Assembly (NCBI GenBank): GCA_964016885.1 | Contig: OZ024758.1 | Span: 31,062,001 to 31,126,000, forward strand | Reading direction: 5' to 3' | Length of the DNA stretch: 64,000 bases | Origin: Eledone cirrhosa | Taxonomy: Eukaryota | Shown: piece after piece, positions 190 to 64,000 of the stretch | How positions within the stretch are numbered: position 1 is the first letter of the stretch | Layout: every line of letters begins with the position of its first letter | Program-made: the position numbers and the translations under genes | The notes under the pieces: model-generated | Databases searched by the model: none | What the model was told of the DNA's origin: nothing | The model's input: only the letters and a program-made list of their open reading frames with translations

Positions 190-250
190 TACCTTTACCG
201 ATCGGTTTCGAATCCCAAAAATAAACGGAGACCATACGGCCTTCGTTGCA
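190..250 (-). ncRNA. 3' half of a type I hammerhead ribozyme in a truncated PLE-like element
   Basis: Minus strand reads ...acga-aggccgtatggtct...ttc-GAAA-ccg-at-cgg-TA-aagg; the 5' core is lost at the adjacent (TA)n. Confidence 0.45.
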
Positions 251-439
251 AATATATGTATATATATATATATACACACATATATATATATATATATATA
301 TATATATATATATATATATATATATATATATATATATATATATATATATATATATATATATATATATATATATATGTATATATATATATATATATATATA
401 TATATATATATATGTATATATATATATATATATATATAT

Positions 440-700
440 AAAGAATGAATAATAACAGGTAGACATCATAAAAAGGTAGTTTATTCCGTGTGCTTACAAG
501 TGTTTCCACGGTGGTACTGCAGCCTAGTTCCGCTACGTGCAAATTCACAAGTATTTGCAGAACTCGAATATCCAATGCTATGACCACTGTTTCCTCAGAG
601 CAGAATGCGGAACTAGGCTGCAGTACCACCGTGGAAACACTTGTAAGCACACGGAATAAACTACCTTTTTATGATGTCTACCTGTTATTATTCATTCTTT
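440..700. mobile_element. Fold-back non-autonomous PLE-like element in (TA)n
   Basis: Inverted arms 440-533 and 607-700 with a 73-nt spacer, flanked by TA repeats, containing an HHR. Confidence 0.75.
491..602 (-). ncRNA. Type I hammerhead ribozyme with enlarged stem II
   Basis: tgct-CTGAGGA-[85 nt closed by gtggt/accac]-GAAA-ca-ct-tg-TA-agca; stem I tgct/agca. Confidence 0.7.
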
Positions 701-1918
701 ATATACACTCCGGAATACTGAAGGATCAGGAACTAAGTTTCTTGAACAATTCTTCCATAACTCGTAGAGTAACCTCTTACCGTACGTCAACCATATCCAG
801 TGTAGTAATTAACCATCACTGCATCTTGGATAATCCTATACCTAATATATATATATATATATATATATATACATATATACATATATATATATATATATAT
901 ATACATATACAACCTCTACATACCTAAATTTACACACATACACATATATACATACACACACACCCATATTTGTAAAATACATAATATGTACATACTACCG
1001 TGTTATAAGGAAAACATGATACATTTTAACAGGATATGATATATAGTTGGACCAGTTGGAGACGGGACAAGAGTAATGAAAGTTAGGATCATTCAAGCAG
1101 AATCGGCGGATGGTAACTATATTGTCCACAGAGATGAGATAGCGGACCATGGAGAGTTATATTCCGAAATCAAGGGTGCATGAACATAAATGATTGTTTA
1201 CCTAGGCGTACGTTTCACAATGTGTAAGATGTTATGTATTGTTTCGTTGTAGACACATGGTGAAGTTCCTATGCATGTGTTCGTTCACATATATGTTAAT
1301 TTGTGCATGCAGAGTGTACTTACTTACGTGTGCGTTTTACATTGCATACGATGTTATGTACCGTTATGTGCCGTATATACGTGGGAAGGACCCCATGGAT
1401 GTGTTCGTTCAAAGGGATGTTAAACATGTGCATGCAGAATGGGCCGAAAAGATGATTCAGGTGCTCAGCGAACCGCCGGGCCGCCCCATTTCGTGGATTG
1501 GGCCTGCTTCTATCGGTCATATGGACCAAGCACTCGTTAAGTTCCTATCCAGTGAAATCAGCGCAGAAAAAGTGCAATTCCGGTGATGCAAGCCATGATG
1601 ATCTCGGACTTCAGTTTAACCGGATTATGTTTCAATTTCACTATTTCCATGGCTTCCACCACCCAGAGCTTGCAACGGCCATCGCCCACTGAATATAATA
1701 CGTATGTATATAGTATATATATATATCGACCCCCGCCTCCCTCTCCCAACTCCACCCGCCACGACCCTTACACGCCTCACAATCTTCCACCACTTCTTCA
1801 TCTTATTGTTTATTCTTATGTTTATTTTTACGTTTATTTTTATTTTTATTTGTTCTCCTTTCCCCTTTTTTCAAAATGTATTTCCTCACACCCTCTGAAC
1901 TCTCTTCCTAACCTATTT

Positions 1919-1947
1919 ACTCATGAAGAAGGGCTTATGCCCGAAAC
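1919..1947 (+). ncRNA. Degenerate, truncated PLE-type minimal hammerhead
   Basis: actc-aTGAAGA-agggc-ttat-gccc-GAAAC; C3 is mutated and the 3' part is replaced by poly-C. Confidence 0.45.
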
Positions 1948-2230
1948 ACCCCCCCCCCCCACACTCTCAAAAGCGTGAACCTAATAAACCTTTATTTGTC
2001 TGCCTCTCTGTTTTGTTCCCGTATAAATTTGCGCTATATATATATATATATATAGTGCAAATTTATACGGGAACAAAACAGAGAGGCATATATATATATA
2101 TATATGTAGAGAGAGAGAGAGATACATATATGTATATATATATATATATATACATATATATATATATATATATATATATATATATATATATATATATATA
2201 TATATATATATATATATATATATATATATA

Positions 2231-2425
2231 TAACGAAGGAAATGTGGTAAGGAACCAGGTGGACCATAACGCACCAAAGTACTCAATACTTGAGGTAGTA
2301 GAGTGGGTAATAGGAACCAGTAAGACCCCGACAGCTGAGCTCAAGCCGTTTCGACGGCTAATTCCGTCCAGAATTAGCCGTCGAAACGGCTTGAGCTCAG
2401 CTGTCGGGGTCTTACTGGTTCCTAT
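2231..2425. mobile_element. Fold-back PLE-like element, family A, with the 3' half of an HHR
   Basis: Arms 2310-2364 and 2371-2425; GAAA-cggc...gctg-TC-ggggtc; homologues at 33577, 40576 and 50531; TA flanks. Confidence 0.75.
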
Positions 2426-60738: not shown

Positions 60739-61059
60739 ATAAAGTAATGATACCGATGTACAAACGTCCCACTACCAAAACACATTAATAAAGCTACGTG
60801 GCTCGTTTACTTTATTACGCCTCGTAGTGCTATATTTTTCTTGCCATTTTCTGAAGTTTGTTTGATATCTTTCTCCAGCCTCTCGCAGGTTTTTACGATA
60901 GACTGGATGTCCTTACCGCTAAAACCTTCCTGGTAACTTCAATAACCTTTAGTTTAAATGCTGTTATATAGTGGTTGTTTATTTTTCTGATAGGAATCTT
61001 TGCGTAAAATGTTAGAGAAATTTCAATCCTCTGTATCTATCTATCGGTCGCAACTCCAG

Positions 61060-61183
61060 GTAGAAGGAGCAACGTGAAATAAAGTGTCTTGCTCAAGGAC
61101 ACAACTCATCGTCCGGTCCGGGAATGGAACTCACAACCTCACTATTGCGAATCCAATTCTCTAACCACTCAGCCACACGCCTT
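61060..61183 (-). mobile_element. SINE S2-like tRNA head fragment
   Basis: Minus strand gaaggcgtgtggctgagtggttagag..gtccttgagcaagacacttt. Confidence 0.7.
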
Positions 61184-61972
61184 CACATATATATGTGTGT
61201 GTGTGCGCGCGTGTGTGTGTGTGTGTGTGTGTGTGTGTGTGTGTGTGTGTGTGTGTGTGTGTGTGTGTGTGTGTGTGTGTGTGTGTGTGTGTGTGTGTGT
61301 GTGTGTGTGTGTGTGTGTGTGTGTGTGTGTGTGTGTCTGTACGTGTACATATTCTCTCTCTATGTCTCGCTTTCAATCTACTCTCTCACAACCACTATCT
61401 CTTTCTCTCTATCTTTCCCTCTCTCCCTATTTATTAAGGTACCCGGGAAAATGCCGCATCTCGGGAACCCATGCTTCAATTGACGCGAAACTTGTTTCAT
61501 TCCATTTGTATTCTCATTTCAAGGGGAACTTCCTTTCAAAGTATTTTCCCATTATGCACCGTTTTGGCTGTATTACAAGCAATCAATCACAGAGTGTTAG
61601 TAGTATATAAATAGATGACAGATGATCAGGGCTCCGTCATGGACTGCGCCATGAAAGTGTTGCGTTATATAATACAAGATTATTAGGTAAAATGACAGAA
61701 AGAGTTAGAGATAAAGATATAAAGAAGAGGGAAAATGGGGGGGGGGGGGCAAATAAGCTGTGGACAGTATAGTCAAGTTGATAGGGCTGAAAAGGAAAAG
61801 CTAAGAGAAAAACTCCAGTATATATATACGTGTGTGTGTGTGTGTGTGTGAGTGTGTGTGTGTGTAGTATATTTGCCAATATACTGTATGTTTAATTAAA
61901 AACACTTAGAAGGCCATTCGCTATGAGTTTTAAAGTAGTGACTTTGTCACTTGTTCTCTGCAAAAACAACAG

Positions 61973-62020
61973 CGGCCGACAGACAGTCTGTTTCTCGCTT
62001 GTGAGCGTTTATCAAGACCA
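61973..62020 (-). ncRNA. Type I hammerhead with U3-A8 core, second family
   Basis: tggtc-TTGATAA-acgct-caca-agcga-GAAA-caga-ctg-tctg-TC-ggccg. Confidence 0.7.
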
Positions 62021-62262
62021 TACACTCAGTTGCCTTCACCGAGGAATTATAGAGGCTGGATTCTTATAGAATTCCAGTAATAATCAGGAGCTGATTAAAC
62101 AGAGCGATTGTCGGTATTAGCCGAATCCCGTACAAATAATGCGGAAATTCCTATTTTGTAAATAAATGTTTTGATGTTATTCTGATAGAAAACCCCTTTA
62201 GCATTTTCTACTGTTTTTTTTCTTCTTCTTACTATTATATATATATATATAATAGTAATCAG

Positions 62263-63670
62263 CACATATATTTTTATTGTTTGACCCGAATTACTTGGTC
62301 GTTTTGATTTTGGCTGTGCGGATGATATGTTTAACCATCATCTCAGTGTGTTTGGCCCTTAACGTATGTTGTAGCTCTGATTCATATGATTCATCGAGCG
62401 CTTGCCACACATATCGGACGTTGATTTTCGTTAATTCCTGAGCTGAAAACGATTCTCGCTATTTTATATTTGTATTAATCTCCAGAGTCTAGCTATTGAG
62501 CAGTTAATTTTATTGATTTTTTTCAGTTACATATATTGACTGTTGAATGGCTCTGTTATATTTAACCATTCTGTTGAGAGCTTTAATTCGATTTGTGATA
62601 TTTTGCATTCTCGCAATAATACACAACTGAATCATTCGCTTAATAGAGGTGTTACCTCCCTTGCTGAATCCCACGAGGGGTCAGTAATAGCTACACTATC
62701 TATAGCATATTGGAGTAAAACCCGTTGAAAACACGACTGCCTTGTTCATCATCTCACCAGAAGCCCAACATTCTTTATGTAGGCGGACAGTACCTGATTT
62801 GGAGTCGCAGAAACCAATACTGGATTTTACCATCAGTCCAGGGTCCGGGAAAGTATCAACACATATATTTTTATTGTTTGACCCGAATTACTTGGTCGTT
62901 TTGATTTTGGCTGTGCGGATGATATGTTTAACCATCATCTCAGTGTGTTTGGCCCTTAACGTATGTTGTAGCTCTGATTCATAGGATTCATCGAGCGCTT
63001 GCCACACATATCGGACGTTGATTTTCGTTAATTCCTGAGCTGAAAACGATTCTCGCTAATTTATATTTGTATTAATCTCCAGAGTCTAGCTATTGAGCAG
63101 TTAATTTTATTGATTTTTTTCAGTTACATATATTGACTGTTGAATGGCTCTGTTATATTTAACCATTCTGTTGAGAGCTTTAATTCGATTTGTGATATTT
63201 TGCATTCTCGCAATAATACACAACTGAATCATTCGCTTAATAGAGGTGTTACCTCCCTTGCTGAATCCCACGAGGGGTCAGTAATAGCTACACTATCTAT
63301 AGCATATTGGAGCAAAACCCGTTGAAAACACGACTGCCTTGTTCATCATCTCACCAGAAGCCCAACATTCTTTATGTAGGCGGACAGTACCTGATTTGGA
63401 GTCGCAGAAACCAATACTGGATTTTACCATCAGTCCAGGGTCCGGGAAAGTATCAACACATATATTTTTATTGTTTGACCCGAATTACTTGGTCGTTTTG
63501 ATTTTGGCTGTGCGGATGATATGTTTAACCATCATCTCAGTGTGTTTGGCCCTTAACGTATGTTGTAGCTCTGATTCATATGATTCATCGAGCGCTTGCC
63601 ACACATATCGGACGTTGATTTTCGTTAATTCCTGAGCTGAAAACGATTCTCGCTAATTTATATTTGTATT
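62263..63670. repeat. 597-bp unit, about 2.4 near-identical tandem copies, TA-flanked
   Basis: Identical sequence at 62263, 62860 and 63457; identical ORFs 597 bp apart. Confidence 0.95.
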
Positions 63671-64000
63671 TGTATATATATATATATATATATATATATA
63701 TATATTAAACAATACGCAGTGAATGTAAGGTAATTTAAAAGGATGCATGTATACAAAAAAAAATAGACAATATCAAGATAATTGTTTACGGAATTGGGGT
63801 GAATCATTAGGGAACGATGTGACAACAGAACATTTGAAAGCTTAATAGAAAAGGTGAGTTAATGGAATGTCGAATAATTTCAATTGATATGATGAATAAT
63901 CGGTCTAACGTTTCCGGATCTTGTTTTTCATCAAAGAGGGACAGAGTTATTTACCAAGTTGGAGAAATCGATTTTGTTTTGCATCCCTGAAAATATTCAT

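Follow-up and report, generated by a model that had tools for sequence, protein, structure and literature searches.

Type I hammerhead motifs in the 3' ends of Penelope-like elements and in a non-coding tandem repeat at (TA)n tracts of Eledone cirrhosa

The window (the whole 64-kb stretch of Eledone cirrhosa DNA analysed here) contains many type I hammerhead motifs, which very probably belong to the 3' ends of several Penelope-like elements (PLEs) and to a single tandem repeat without coding capacity. Nearly all of these end at (TA)n and were likely written there by PLE enzymes that likely prime on both broken DNA ends. Judged by the sequence, the genome is very rich in such motifs, which are predicted to cleave themselves. 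A type I descriptor of our own (core C3-G8 or U3-A8, stems I-III; strict, score at least 8 and at most one core mismatch) gave 15 strict matches in the window against a mean of 1.13 (maximum 4) over 30 local dinucleotide shuffles, the very comparison that the sequence-only reading had proposed, and 13 strict matches with a perfect core against 0.2. With a relaxed descriptor, which admits a long stem II and a 3-bp stem I, there were 21 matches, 17 of them with a perfect core, while 12 shuffles gave 3.2 and 0.8. The descriptor matches have an open stem I and a hairpin or palindromic stem III. The complete motifs are therefore real and beyond chance. They number 18 in 64 kb, or about one per 3.6 kb; the density of one per 2 kb given by the sequence-only reading holds only if halves and decayed copies are included. 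A random 327-kb sample of the genome holds about one motif per 7 kb (53 with a perfect core versus 1.0 expected in shuffles), which extrapolates to about 380,000 genome-wide and makes the window typical of the genome.

Of 33 motifs listed in the sequence-only reading, 16 are complete with at most one core mismatch (classes beyond the descriptor output were assigned by eye). The conserved core (C3/U3 U G A N G8/A8 A ... GAAA ... UH) is perfect at 14 sites (491, 20420, 21009, 21622, 21712, 26832, 41217, 48754, 49826, 49950, 50402, 50707, 58042 and 61973) and has one mismatch at two (24805 and 26490). Fifteen others are half, stem-broken, uncertain or decayed. Core and stem II are present at 9391, 24854, 52637 and 55368, where the three-stem fold fails at a stem I that is weak or cut off; it also fails in five half motifs (190, 2371, 33620, 40720 and 23863), which retain only the 3' half and have relatives elsewhere with a fuller motif. 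At 58607 the core boxes are present with stems not confirmed, and five sites are decayed minimal motifs, three backed by relatives (1919, 55832 and 57275) and two by resemblance only (59915 and 63902). The last two sites are unsupported as hammerheads, namely 34595, and 53500, which belongs to another repeat, the real motif lying at 53619. Motifs at 18732, 53619, 55331 and 24045 were absent from that list. In several cases (families C, F and I) stem III is no palindrome.

Of the 33 listed sites, 31 have a (TA)5 tract no more than 300 nt away in one direction or the other, compared with 47% of background positions, which bears out the earlier statement that most motifs lie close to such tracts. 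The motifs stand upstream of (TA)n, which was found downstream of 13 of the 15 strict matches (background 31%). TA follows the 3' end directly in 70/82 copies of family B, 120/136 of C, 114/129 of D, 86/115 of E and 34/59 of F. No empty target site was found for the insertions.

Seven families (A-G) were traced, and about 17 of the 33 listed sites belong to families left untraced. By eye there are about 15-20 families, so the earlier count of over a dozen stands, while not all of them are unrelated. Twelve listed sites, in families B, C, D and E, are the 3' ends of ORF-bearing PLEs, two of Neptune/Nematis type (B and D) and two of Hydra type (C and E), with clade assignments resting on linker motifs read by eye from the translations. 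All four run upstream into GIY-YIG coding sequence, B and D also into that of the reverse transcriptase (RT), and the window copies are therefore 5'-truncated ends of coding PLEs. Their hammerhead sits in the PLE terminal repeat region on the sense strand. A single ORF with RT and C-terminal GIY-YIG endonuclease (EN) is intact in D, in pieces in B and C, and left as an EN remnant in E. The Pfam GIY-YIG domain is above cut-off in B only (E 2.9e-7), below it in D and not detected in C, and the named homologues carry only the label reverse transcriptase domain protein. The features of families B and D in the window are as follows (strand is given where one was assigned).

21484..21821: family B head-to-head 3' ends, Neptune/Nematis-type PLE, long and short end in (TA)n
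21635 (-) and 21736 (+), inside 21484..21821: family B U3-A8 hammerheads
50335..50617 (+): 3' end of family B with a hammerhead at 50425 (stem I of 3 bp), fused to a family C tail
55046..55606: family D head-to-head 3' ends, abundant Neptune/Nematis-type PLE
55331 (-) and 55368 (+), inside 55046..55606: family D cores with weak stem I
9153..9460 (-): family D 3' end, subfamily of the intact L145 element, 94% over 180 nt to L146/L148
26722..26910 (-): 3' end related to family D, complete hammerhead at 26845

RT and EN pieces were recovered for family B. Family D has an intact RT-linker-EN frame of 1273 codons and carries an asparagine-rich insert; candidates for ORF-bearing PLEs number about 17,000. 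A CX2-5CxxC linker precedes GIY-YIG in both (by eye), and the L145 element of family D shows the inverted layout with a 3.5-kb coding arm. The Hydra-type families are represented by the following features.

2233..2422: family C 3' ends in head-to-head orientation, Hydra-type PLE, each truncated within stem II (half motifs)
33579..33775: second family C insertion, half motifs
40577..40776: third family C insertion, half motifs
23816..24707: head-to-head insertion of family E (Hydra-type PLE)
41165..41425 (-): 3' end of family E, complete hammerhead at 41233, inverted tail arm
57960..58146 (+): family E 3' end, complete hammerhead at 58086
26440..26620 (-): E-like 3' end, one core mismatch in the hammerhead at 26507

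For family C the RT end plus EN were recovered, and for family E an EN coding remnant upstream. Both have the CxCX5C linker (by eye) and a 3' non-coding part of 1.1-1.3 kb ahead of the hammerhead; the CxxC and CxH motifs around conserved E and N were read in C only. In the E insertion at 23816..24707, a SINE at about 23876-24014 interrupts the left hammerhead, and the target duplication of this SINE holds a second GAAA half, the listed site 23863; the right copy has an internal deletion (24546).

The marks of a retrozyme, no coding capacity and tandem units, are lacking in B, C, D and E, which lead into PLE ORFs; among their fetched copies no tandem arrangement was found except one direct D pair (L146), and their 5' ends are variable truncations. 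The description as non-autonomous is not supported for these four of the seven traced families. Among the seven, family A alone is demonstrated to be a tandem retrozyme that lacks coding sequence.

20186..21385: retrozyme insertion of family A, the 429-nt unit in two head-to-head arms plus internal (TA)n
20434 (-) and 21035 (+), inside 20186..21385: family A complete hammerheads

Family A accounts for two listed sites. Its 429-nt non-coding unit with an internal TA tract has no ORF of at least 100 aa over it and no LTR features, and no upstream ORF was found at the 30 best-matching loci, a set that favours full units and may have missed a parent PLE. The window insertion ends at unit position 60 on the left and 110 on the right (the long end of the family is at 117), with arms 97.6% identical to each other and 97.7-97.9% to dispersed copies. 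Elsewhere in the genome, family A forms arrays of 20 or more units, with 22 anchors at 468-nt spacing on C22, where an N run interrupts the array, and 35 anchors on C14. The C22 units are 99.97% identical and are flanked by one short and one long end with shared private variants, while those of C14 are 95.6% identical and one LINE fragment is common to two neighbouring units. Copying of family A by PLE enzymes is likely. In addition, other tandem hammerhead units occur in flanks, as a 538-nt pair in L279.

The remaining families and single motifs are listed below.

24786..24990: head-to-head pair of family F, with a single core mismatch at 24829 and a truncated stem I at 24854
49727..50035: head-to-head pair of family G, both hammerheads complete, 49842 (-) and 49987 (+)
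441..705: head-to-head pair, complete hammerhead at 506 (-), stem II domain of 84 nt
100..258 (-): hammerhead 3' half; the L113 copy has a complete long-stem II motif
48625..49655: family M insertion, complete hammerhead at 48769 (-), 61-nt stem II domain
51790-52758 (+): family M-related copy, decayed stem I
50690..50800 (-): one complete hammerhead (50723), not paired
61870..62230 (-): 3' end of family I with a complete hammerhead of U3-A8 type at 61994
18701..18747 (+): complete U3-A8 hammerhead missing from the first list, away from (TA)n
53593..53635 (+): U3-A8 hammerhead missing from the first list, weak stem II, away from (TA)n
55735..55870 (-): decayed minimal hammerhead (similar: 1919, 57275, 59915, 63902)

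Families F and G have about 1.2 kb of common non-coding upstream DNA, and the ORFs nearby may be unrelated to the elements. Family F has a canonical hairpin stem III. In 30 of its 39 collected copies (nine, with the 5' box lacking or lost, were dropped), four of the six stem I pairs change on both sides (16 cells), with a covariation score of 0.129 versus 0.084 shuffled (0/500) and at most 0.072 when slid, a score that relatedness can inflate; stems II and III hardly vary. The stem covariation expected within families is thus present in stem I of family F.

The 3' ends of each family fall at two fixed points that are about 45-85 nt from each other, and one short and one long ('tail') end meet in 115 of 123 head-to-head pairs (B 14/16, C 41/41, D 11/16, E 33/34, F 16/16), or in 82/89 with family E, whose query held the junction, left out. 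Family A pairs fit in 15 of 19 cases by eye, and the exceptions are five of the 16 D pairs and four of the 19 A pairs. The element's own letters at the short end read TA/AT, and many junctions are near-palindromic with a gap of 0-3 nt. The layout is that of PLEs: 5' truncation, an inverted copy at the 5' end and a tail at one end. We propose that the endonuclease would cut both strands of a (TA)n tract, that 2-5 nt of TA microhomology would let each DNA end prime the reverse transcriptase at either of two internal start sites, and that both cDNAs would stop early and then be joined at their 5' ends. The template would be one uncleaved multimeric or re-ligated circular RNA, because copies span the cleavage site and the arms overlap, and family A would borrow the PLE machinery. 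At most, the ribozyme would serve to process the RNA or close it into circles, and insertion can probably proceed without it. Moreover, two abundant groups have impaired-looking motifs, family D with its weak stem I and a C subfamily with a C3-A8 mismatch (20/20 copies), and the spread of the elements may therefore not be driven by the ribozyme. A stronger form of the proposal, which we regard as possible yet somewhat doubtful, is that about 400,000 hammerheads, above the published tallies compared, trace to a dimeric enzyme priming both (TA)n ends on one RNA, each at one of two TA-matching sites, for Neptune-type and Hydra-type PLEs and a protein-free retrozyme circle alike. If so, the footprints of family A would show directly that animal retrozymes are moved by PLE enzymes, and its internal microsatellite would seed new (TA)n targets.

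The same elements could also have acquired their inversions by self-priming on antisense transcripts, as PMC3846280 proposes, or from two separate RNAs, the A arrays having grown by recombination at the DNA level and not by rolling circle. The near-palindromic junctions agree with this, as do the unequal C14 units with their shared LINE fragment; by itself it leaves the short-with-long ends unaccounted for, and the near-identical C22 units, whose array has one short and one long end that share private variants, speak against it. We consider this account rather unlikely. It is improbable that the elements are mostly non-autonomous retrozymes, as in the sequence-only reading, and that they spread as self-cleaved circular RNAs, since four families (B, C, D and E) continue into the coding sequence of PLEs, are variably truncated at their 5' ends and, among the fetched copies, show no tandem arrangement save the L146 pair. 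That view accommodates family A, the non-coding upstream DNA of F and G with no adjoining ORF, the tandem units of L279 and the half or so of the sites left untraced.

An origin of the inverted pairs as DNA transposons of MITE type or as products of fold-back repair, with passive hammerhead-like motifs, is very improbable. Short TA-flanked palindromes do resemble MITEs and TA tracts are unstable, but the ends are unequal, the junctions vary, the arms are 5'-truncated PLE ends and 3.5-kb coding arms show an identical layout, which largely refutes this explanation. Chance matches in AT-rich, repeat-rich DNA have a negligible probability. An Rfam search of the window gave no match at gathering score, no hammerhead family is among the 150 of 496 E-value matches listed, the folding energies of nine motifs showed no gain over shuffles (z 0.17 to -1.87), and two listed sites are unsupported; for complete motifs, however, the excess of perfect cores in both the window and the random sample refutes chance, as do the fixed position in PLE 3' ends and the covariation.

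The analysis supports the sequence-only reading on the PLE and retrozyme identity of the elements, on their type I hammerheads and on the tie to (TA)n, but the system is not new, since elements of this kind are already described. PLE hammerheads, the U3-A8 core, opposite-strand pairs, tails and the TA bias are published; the families, the density and the counted end rule are new here. In EN+ PLEs the flanking repeats carry type I motifs, mostly single, from truncated copies and in many families per genome, with a palindromic helix III, the U3-A8 variant and opposite-strand pairs separated by 100-700 bp (Cervera and de la Pena 2014, PMC4209133). The motifs here share these traits, whereas at about one per 7 kb they are far denser than in that study, whose descriptors differ and which gives about 9,000 minimal motifs for Xenopus tropicalis, and several families have a canonical stem III or stem II domains of 60-85 nt. 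Families C and E share with the Hydra-clade PLEs (Craig et al. 2021, PMC8557442) the C-terminal GIY-YIG, CxCX5C linker, hammerhead and (TA)n insertion, and C also CxxC and CxH around conserved E and N, while their 3' non-coding parts are long. Families B and D share with Neptune/Nematis-type PLEs (PMC8557442) the RT, the linker, the C-terminal GIY-YIG, the microsatellite bias and the inverted 5'-truncated copy with a tail at one end, whereas D differs in its weak stem I and asparagine-rich insert, the latter as in rotifer PLEs (PMC3846280). The inverted copy with a tail at one end was described before (PMC8557442, PMC3846280), and head-to-head junctions were explained by self-priming on an antisense template (PMC3846280).

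Family A resembles metazoan non-LTR retrozymes (Cervera and de la Pena 2020, PMC7229834; bioRxiv 10.64898/2026.07.22.740005), non-coding tandem units of 440-490 nt with one type I hammerhead each; it has U-U at the stem II base, like axolotl HHR_Amex2, and coexists with PLEs. Its inverted-arm layout, internal (TA)n and two fixed ends do not appear in the available text of PMC7229834 and Li, Clavereau and Pollet 2026. In vitro, the Poseidon PLE of Anolis uses two internal RT start sites that define the tail, without homology to the cut DNA; both strands of AT-rich targets are cut and extended, a dimer is predicted, uncleaved RNA is used and ribozyme mutants still insert (Frangieh et al. 2024, PMC11167929). 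By contrast, the short end here reads TA/AT like the target, the tails are 45-85 nt instead of 30-40, and the pairing of short with long ends is counted. The origin of PLE inverted ends and the means by which animal retrozymes move are open questions in the literature (PMC8557442; bioRxiv 10.64898/2026.07.22.740005), and the young intact elements found here, with mapped start sites and a counted end rule, could serve directly as substrates in the in vitro assays of PMC11167929. The motif density also matters for annotating octopus-like genomes; in the available text of the Octopus vulgaris repeat annotation (PMC13282606), a term search returned no mention of ribozymes.

A further observation concerns family D, in which the two arms of young insertions resemble each other more than they resemble other copies: within three inverted insertions they are 100, 100 and 99.6% identical, against 98.8-99.4% between the four closest loci (1.2 kb). 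The similarity of arms within insertions could also stem from later gene conversion.

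Matches to our own type I hammerhead descriptor, which admits a U3-A8 core and a palindromic stem III, exceed dinucleotide-shuffled controls in the AT-rich, repeat-rich window (C19:31062001-31126000 of a 3.0-Gb assembly in 1796 contigs), as the sequence-only reading had expected. The strict descriptor gave 15 matches where 30 local dinucleotide shuffles gave 1.13 on average (for those with a perfect core, 13 against 0.2), and the relaxed descriptor 21 against 3.2, its long-range parses at 33148, 58738 and 63964 being rejected as within the chance level. The 33 motifs listed in that reading stood in part: 14 are complete, two have one core mismatch, one has the core boxes with unconfirmed stems, four have a stem I that is weak or cut, five are 3' halves, five are decayed and two are unsupported, with all classes beyond the descriptor output assigned by eye. 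The site at 53500 was rejected as a hammerhead motif. Moreover, motifs absent from the list are present at 18732, 53619, 55331 and 24045, and the stem II domains of about 50–85 nt in the hammerheads at 491-601 and 48754-48841 and in the genomic locus L113 exceed the limit of our first descriptor. The Rfam search of the window at the gathering score returned no match, and by E-value the matches listed are mostly chance resemblances to miRNA hairpins; single-strand folding of nine motifs was no better than that of shuffles. Stem covariation, proposed earlier as a check, is seen in stem I of family F, in which 4 of 6 pairs show changes on both sides among 30 of 39 collected copies (the other nine, with the 5' box missing or lost, were left out). 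The score is above all 500 shuffles and above slid controls, by a statistic that ignores the kinship of copies, whereas a bare count of covarying pairs falls short of significance (67 of 500 shuffles).

The hammerhead-(TA)n link is real and directional. A (TA)5 tract lies within 300 nt downstream of 13 of the 15 strict matches in the window, against 31% of positions, and of 55 of 64 matches in a random sample, against 25%; on either side, 31 of the 33 listed sites have one within 300 nt (background 47%), so that the proximity first noted in the sequence-only reading is upheld. The sample consisted of 33 stretches, each 9.9 kb long and placed at round coordinates (326,700 nt in all). It yielded its 64 matches against 3.35 in 20 shuffles; 19 came from a single array and one is a duplicate, and with the array counted once there are 45 loci, or 0.14 per kb. 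The window is typical of its own genome. After background subtraction we estimate about 380,000 motifs genome-wide (bootstrap 257,000–587,000 before subtraction), which is rough and may be high, since 12 of the 33 stretches have no motif and the four largest contigs are less dense (11 in 119 kb, compared with 33 in 198 kb). Tallies obtained with descriptors different from ours are 126,247 in axolotl, more than 6,000 in a coral and about 5,000 in a mussel in the available text of PMC7229834, and about 9,000 minimal motifs in Xenopus tropicalis in that of PMC4209133.

The motifs are very probably the 3' ends of Penelope-like elements (PLEs) together with one retrozyme. Among seven traced families (A–G), for which candidate numbers are lower bounds rather than copy numbers and clade names come from protein motifs read by eye, B, C, D and E (12 listed sites together) reach PLE coding sequence. 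The PLE link suggested by the sequence-only reading is thereby confirmed for these, but its term 'non-autonomous' fails for them; the retrozyme, family A, has no ORF. The best named relative of one motif-linked protein is from Octopus vulgaris (68% identity). Family D (9391 and 55331/55368, with a related site at 26845) has at least 1,538 candidates, and its protein as query gives at least 17,004. Two of its copies have 1.45 kb upstream in common, encoding RT and GIY-YIG, and locus L145 carries a frame of 1273 codons encoding RT, a CX4CxxC linker and GIY-YIG, followed after about 590 nt by the hammerhead and adjoined by a 3.5-kb inverted arm; stem I is weak, with 2–4 bp. Family B (21622, 21712, 50402) has a U3-A8 core, and the sequence upstream encodes RT, a CX4CxxC linker and GIY-YIG. 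Its 3' region upstream of the motif (loci L042 and L046) contains repeated GC-box-like and CCAAT-like words, which we take to give it a promoter-like look. Family E (23863/24045, 41217, 58042) has a second Hydra-type endonuclease upstream. The window copies of family C (2371, 33620, 40720) end within stem II, and longer copies have the full motif with a GUC site and a GIY-YIG frame 1.1–1.3 kb upstream, whose CxCX5C linker and CxxC/CxH motifs are as given for the Hydra clade in the accessible part of PMC8557442. In one C subfamily (L184-L203), all 20 copies picked by likeness to one query have a C3-A8 mismatch in the core, while its sister subfamily has a U3-A8 core. This subfamily and D are abundant elements whose ribozymes look impaired. 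The proteins of C and D went undetected by Pfam, and a regex scan of the window for PLE protein motifs found no clear ORF; tblastn found one remnant, behind which no motif was found:

47185-48310, forward strand, remains of a decayed Hydra-type PLE ORF

Within each family, 3' ends fall at two fixed positions, short and long, about 45–85 nt apart, and (TA)n follows both in most copies (B 70/82, C 120/136, D 114/129, E 86/115 and F 34/59, duplicate loci removed beforehand). Of 123 head-to-head pairs, 115 combine a short with a long end, or 82 of 89 excluding E, whose query contained a head-to-head junction; so do 15 of 19 family A pairs judged by eye. These unequal ends led us to reject a MITE reading of the inverted pairs. 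Two to five letters of the TA repeat belong to the element itself at every short end and at both family A ends. In addition, neither fixed end is the ribozyme cleavage site: in family A the latter is at unit position 273 and the insertion ends are at 60 and 117. Copies extend across the predicted cleavage site, from which we infer a template that was uncleaved or re-ligated. Palindromes around a TA tract at 1993-2096 and 52779-52904 consist of two like ends facing tail to tail.

Family A (20420, 21009; at least 2,314 candidates) has a unit of 429 nt plus a variable internal (TA)n. Its copies are dispersed and also form arrays with 22 anchors on contig C22 and 35 on C14, with unit identities of 99.97% and 95.6%, respectively; the C22 array is bounded by one short and one long end. 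Candidate empty sites in the arrays proved to be an N run (the odd-length C22 unit) and LINE pieces (the C14 insertions). On its right side the C14 array is followed, in locus L112, by an LTR-retrotransposon fragment that resembles an integrase, and at 20130-20160 what is presumably a Helitron-like terminal motif abuts the left TA tract of a family A insertion. In families F and G (four sites; at least 2,145 and 852 candidates), copies have about 1.2 kb of non-coding, low-complexity upstream DNA in common, and the search there for a parent ORF gave none that could be assigned to either family. Another hammerhead family forms a 538-nt tandem pair in locus L279 (positions 7367 and 7905), a further retrozyme candidate. 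Tandem units of about 590 nt ending at (TA)n lie at 26909-27722 and 62258-63670 (99% identical in the latter); they have no descriptor match and may represent a retrozyme-like repeat whose ribozyme is of another kind or decayed.

For the inverted pairs we favour two-ended priming on one RNA, to which we give about an even chance. A (TA)n tract would be cut and both DNA ends would prime through TA microhomology, one at each start site, after which both cDNAs would terminate early and be joined; family A likely uses this PLE route as a multimer or circle. According to the available text of PMC11167929, a Poseidon PLE, which is predicted to dimerise, cleaves AT-rich DNA on both strands, extends both and begins reverse transcription at two internal sites bounding the tail, and its dead-ribozyme version inserts equally well. 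The ribozyme may be dispensable here, judging from the weak stem I of D and the consistent core mismatch of the C subfamily. Alternatively, the two arms could be copied from separate RNAs, or antisense self-priming could make the pairs (PMC3846280, as far as its accessible text goes). In three young inverted D insertions the arms are 100, 100 and 99.6% identical, compared with 98.8–99.4% among the four closest loci, a likeness that later gene conversion could also produce; the window's own family A arms, 97.6% identical, show no such closeness. The family A arrays, for their part, could grow at the DNA level, as is supported by one LINE fragment common to two neighbouring C14 units.

The pattern is real and mostly known biology. 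The accessible parts of PMC4209133 already describe PLE hammerheads that have spread as single, truncated copies, along with the U3-A8 core and pairs on opposite strands; those of PMC8557442 and PMC3846280, inverted copies tailed at one end, the preference for (TA)n and the Hydra clade; and those of PMC7229834 and bioRxiv 10.64898/2026.07.22.740005, retrozymes and a proposed PLE link, the preprint reporting cleavage in 1 of 9 dimers assayed and leaving mobilisation open. PMC13282606 gives O. vulgaris 31 recently active Penelope-like families, and the word 'ribozyme' is absent from its available text. Our search on cephalopod hammerheads, Penelope twin priming and head-to-head retrozymes, which most subscription papers lay outside, found neither these families nor the counted end rule, although the families may already be in the supplementary lists of PMC8557442, which include Octopus, or in Repbase. 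New are the PLE 3'-end families and one retrozyme, their striking density, and the counted end rule, which sharpens the open question of the PLE mechanism.

Other repeats intersect with these elements. At 23876-24014, a SINE that is common in the window (about 14 copies) has inserted into stem III, a TA repeat, of a family E hammerhead, and the resulting target duplication contains a second GAAA half of the motif; the listed site at 23863 is this duplication and was rejected as an independent motif. Sequences at 33774-34444, 45887-46503, 50036-50334 and 59522-59888 and in loci L111/L112, which we take to be 3' fragments of an RTE-like LINE (with a Pfam match to DUF6451 below the cut-off), also terminate at (TA)n, and two neighbouring family A units carry the same LINE end inside their internal TA tract. 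The window further contains minisatellites:

28079-28890, minisatellite, period 31
30396-31177, minisatellite, period 79
35454-36729, minisatellite, period 85
37757-40375, minisatellite, period 61
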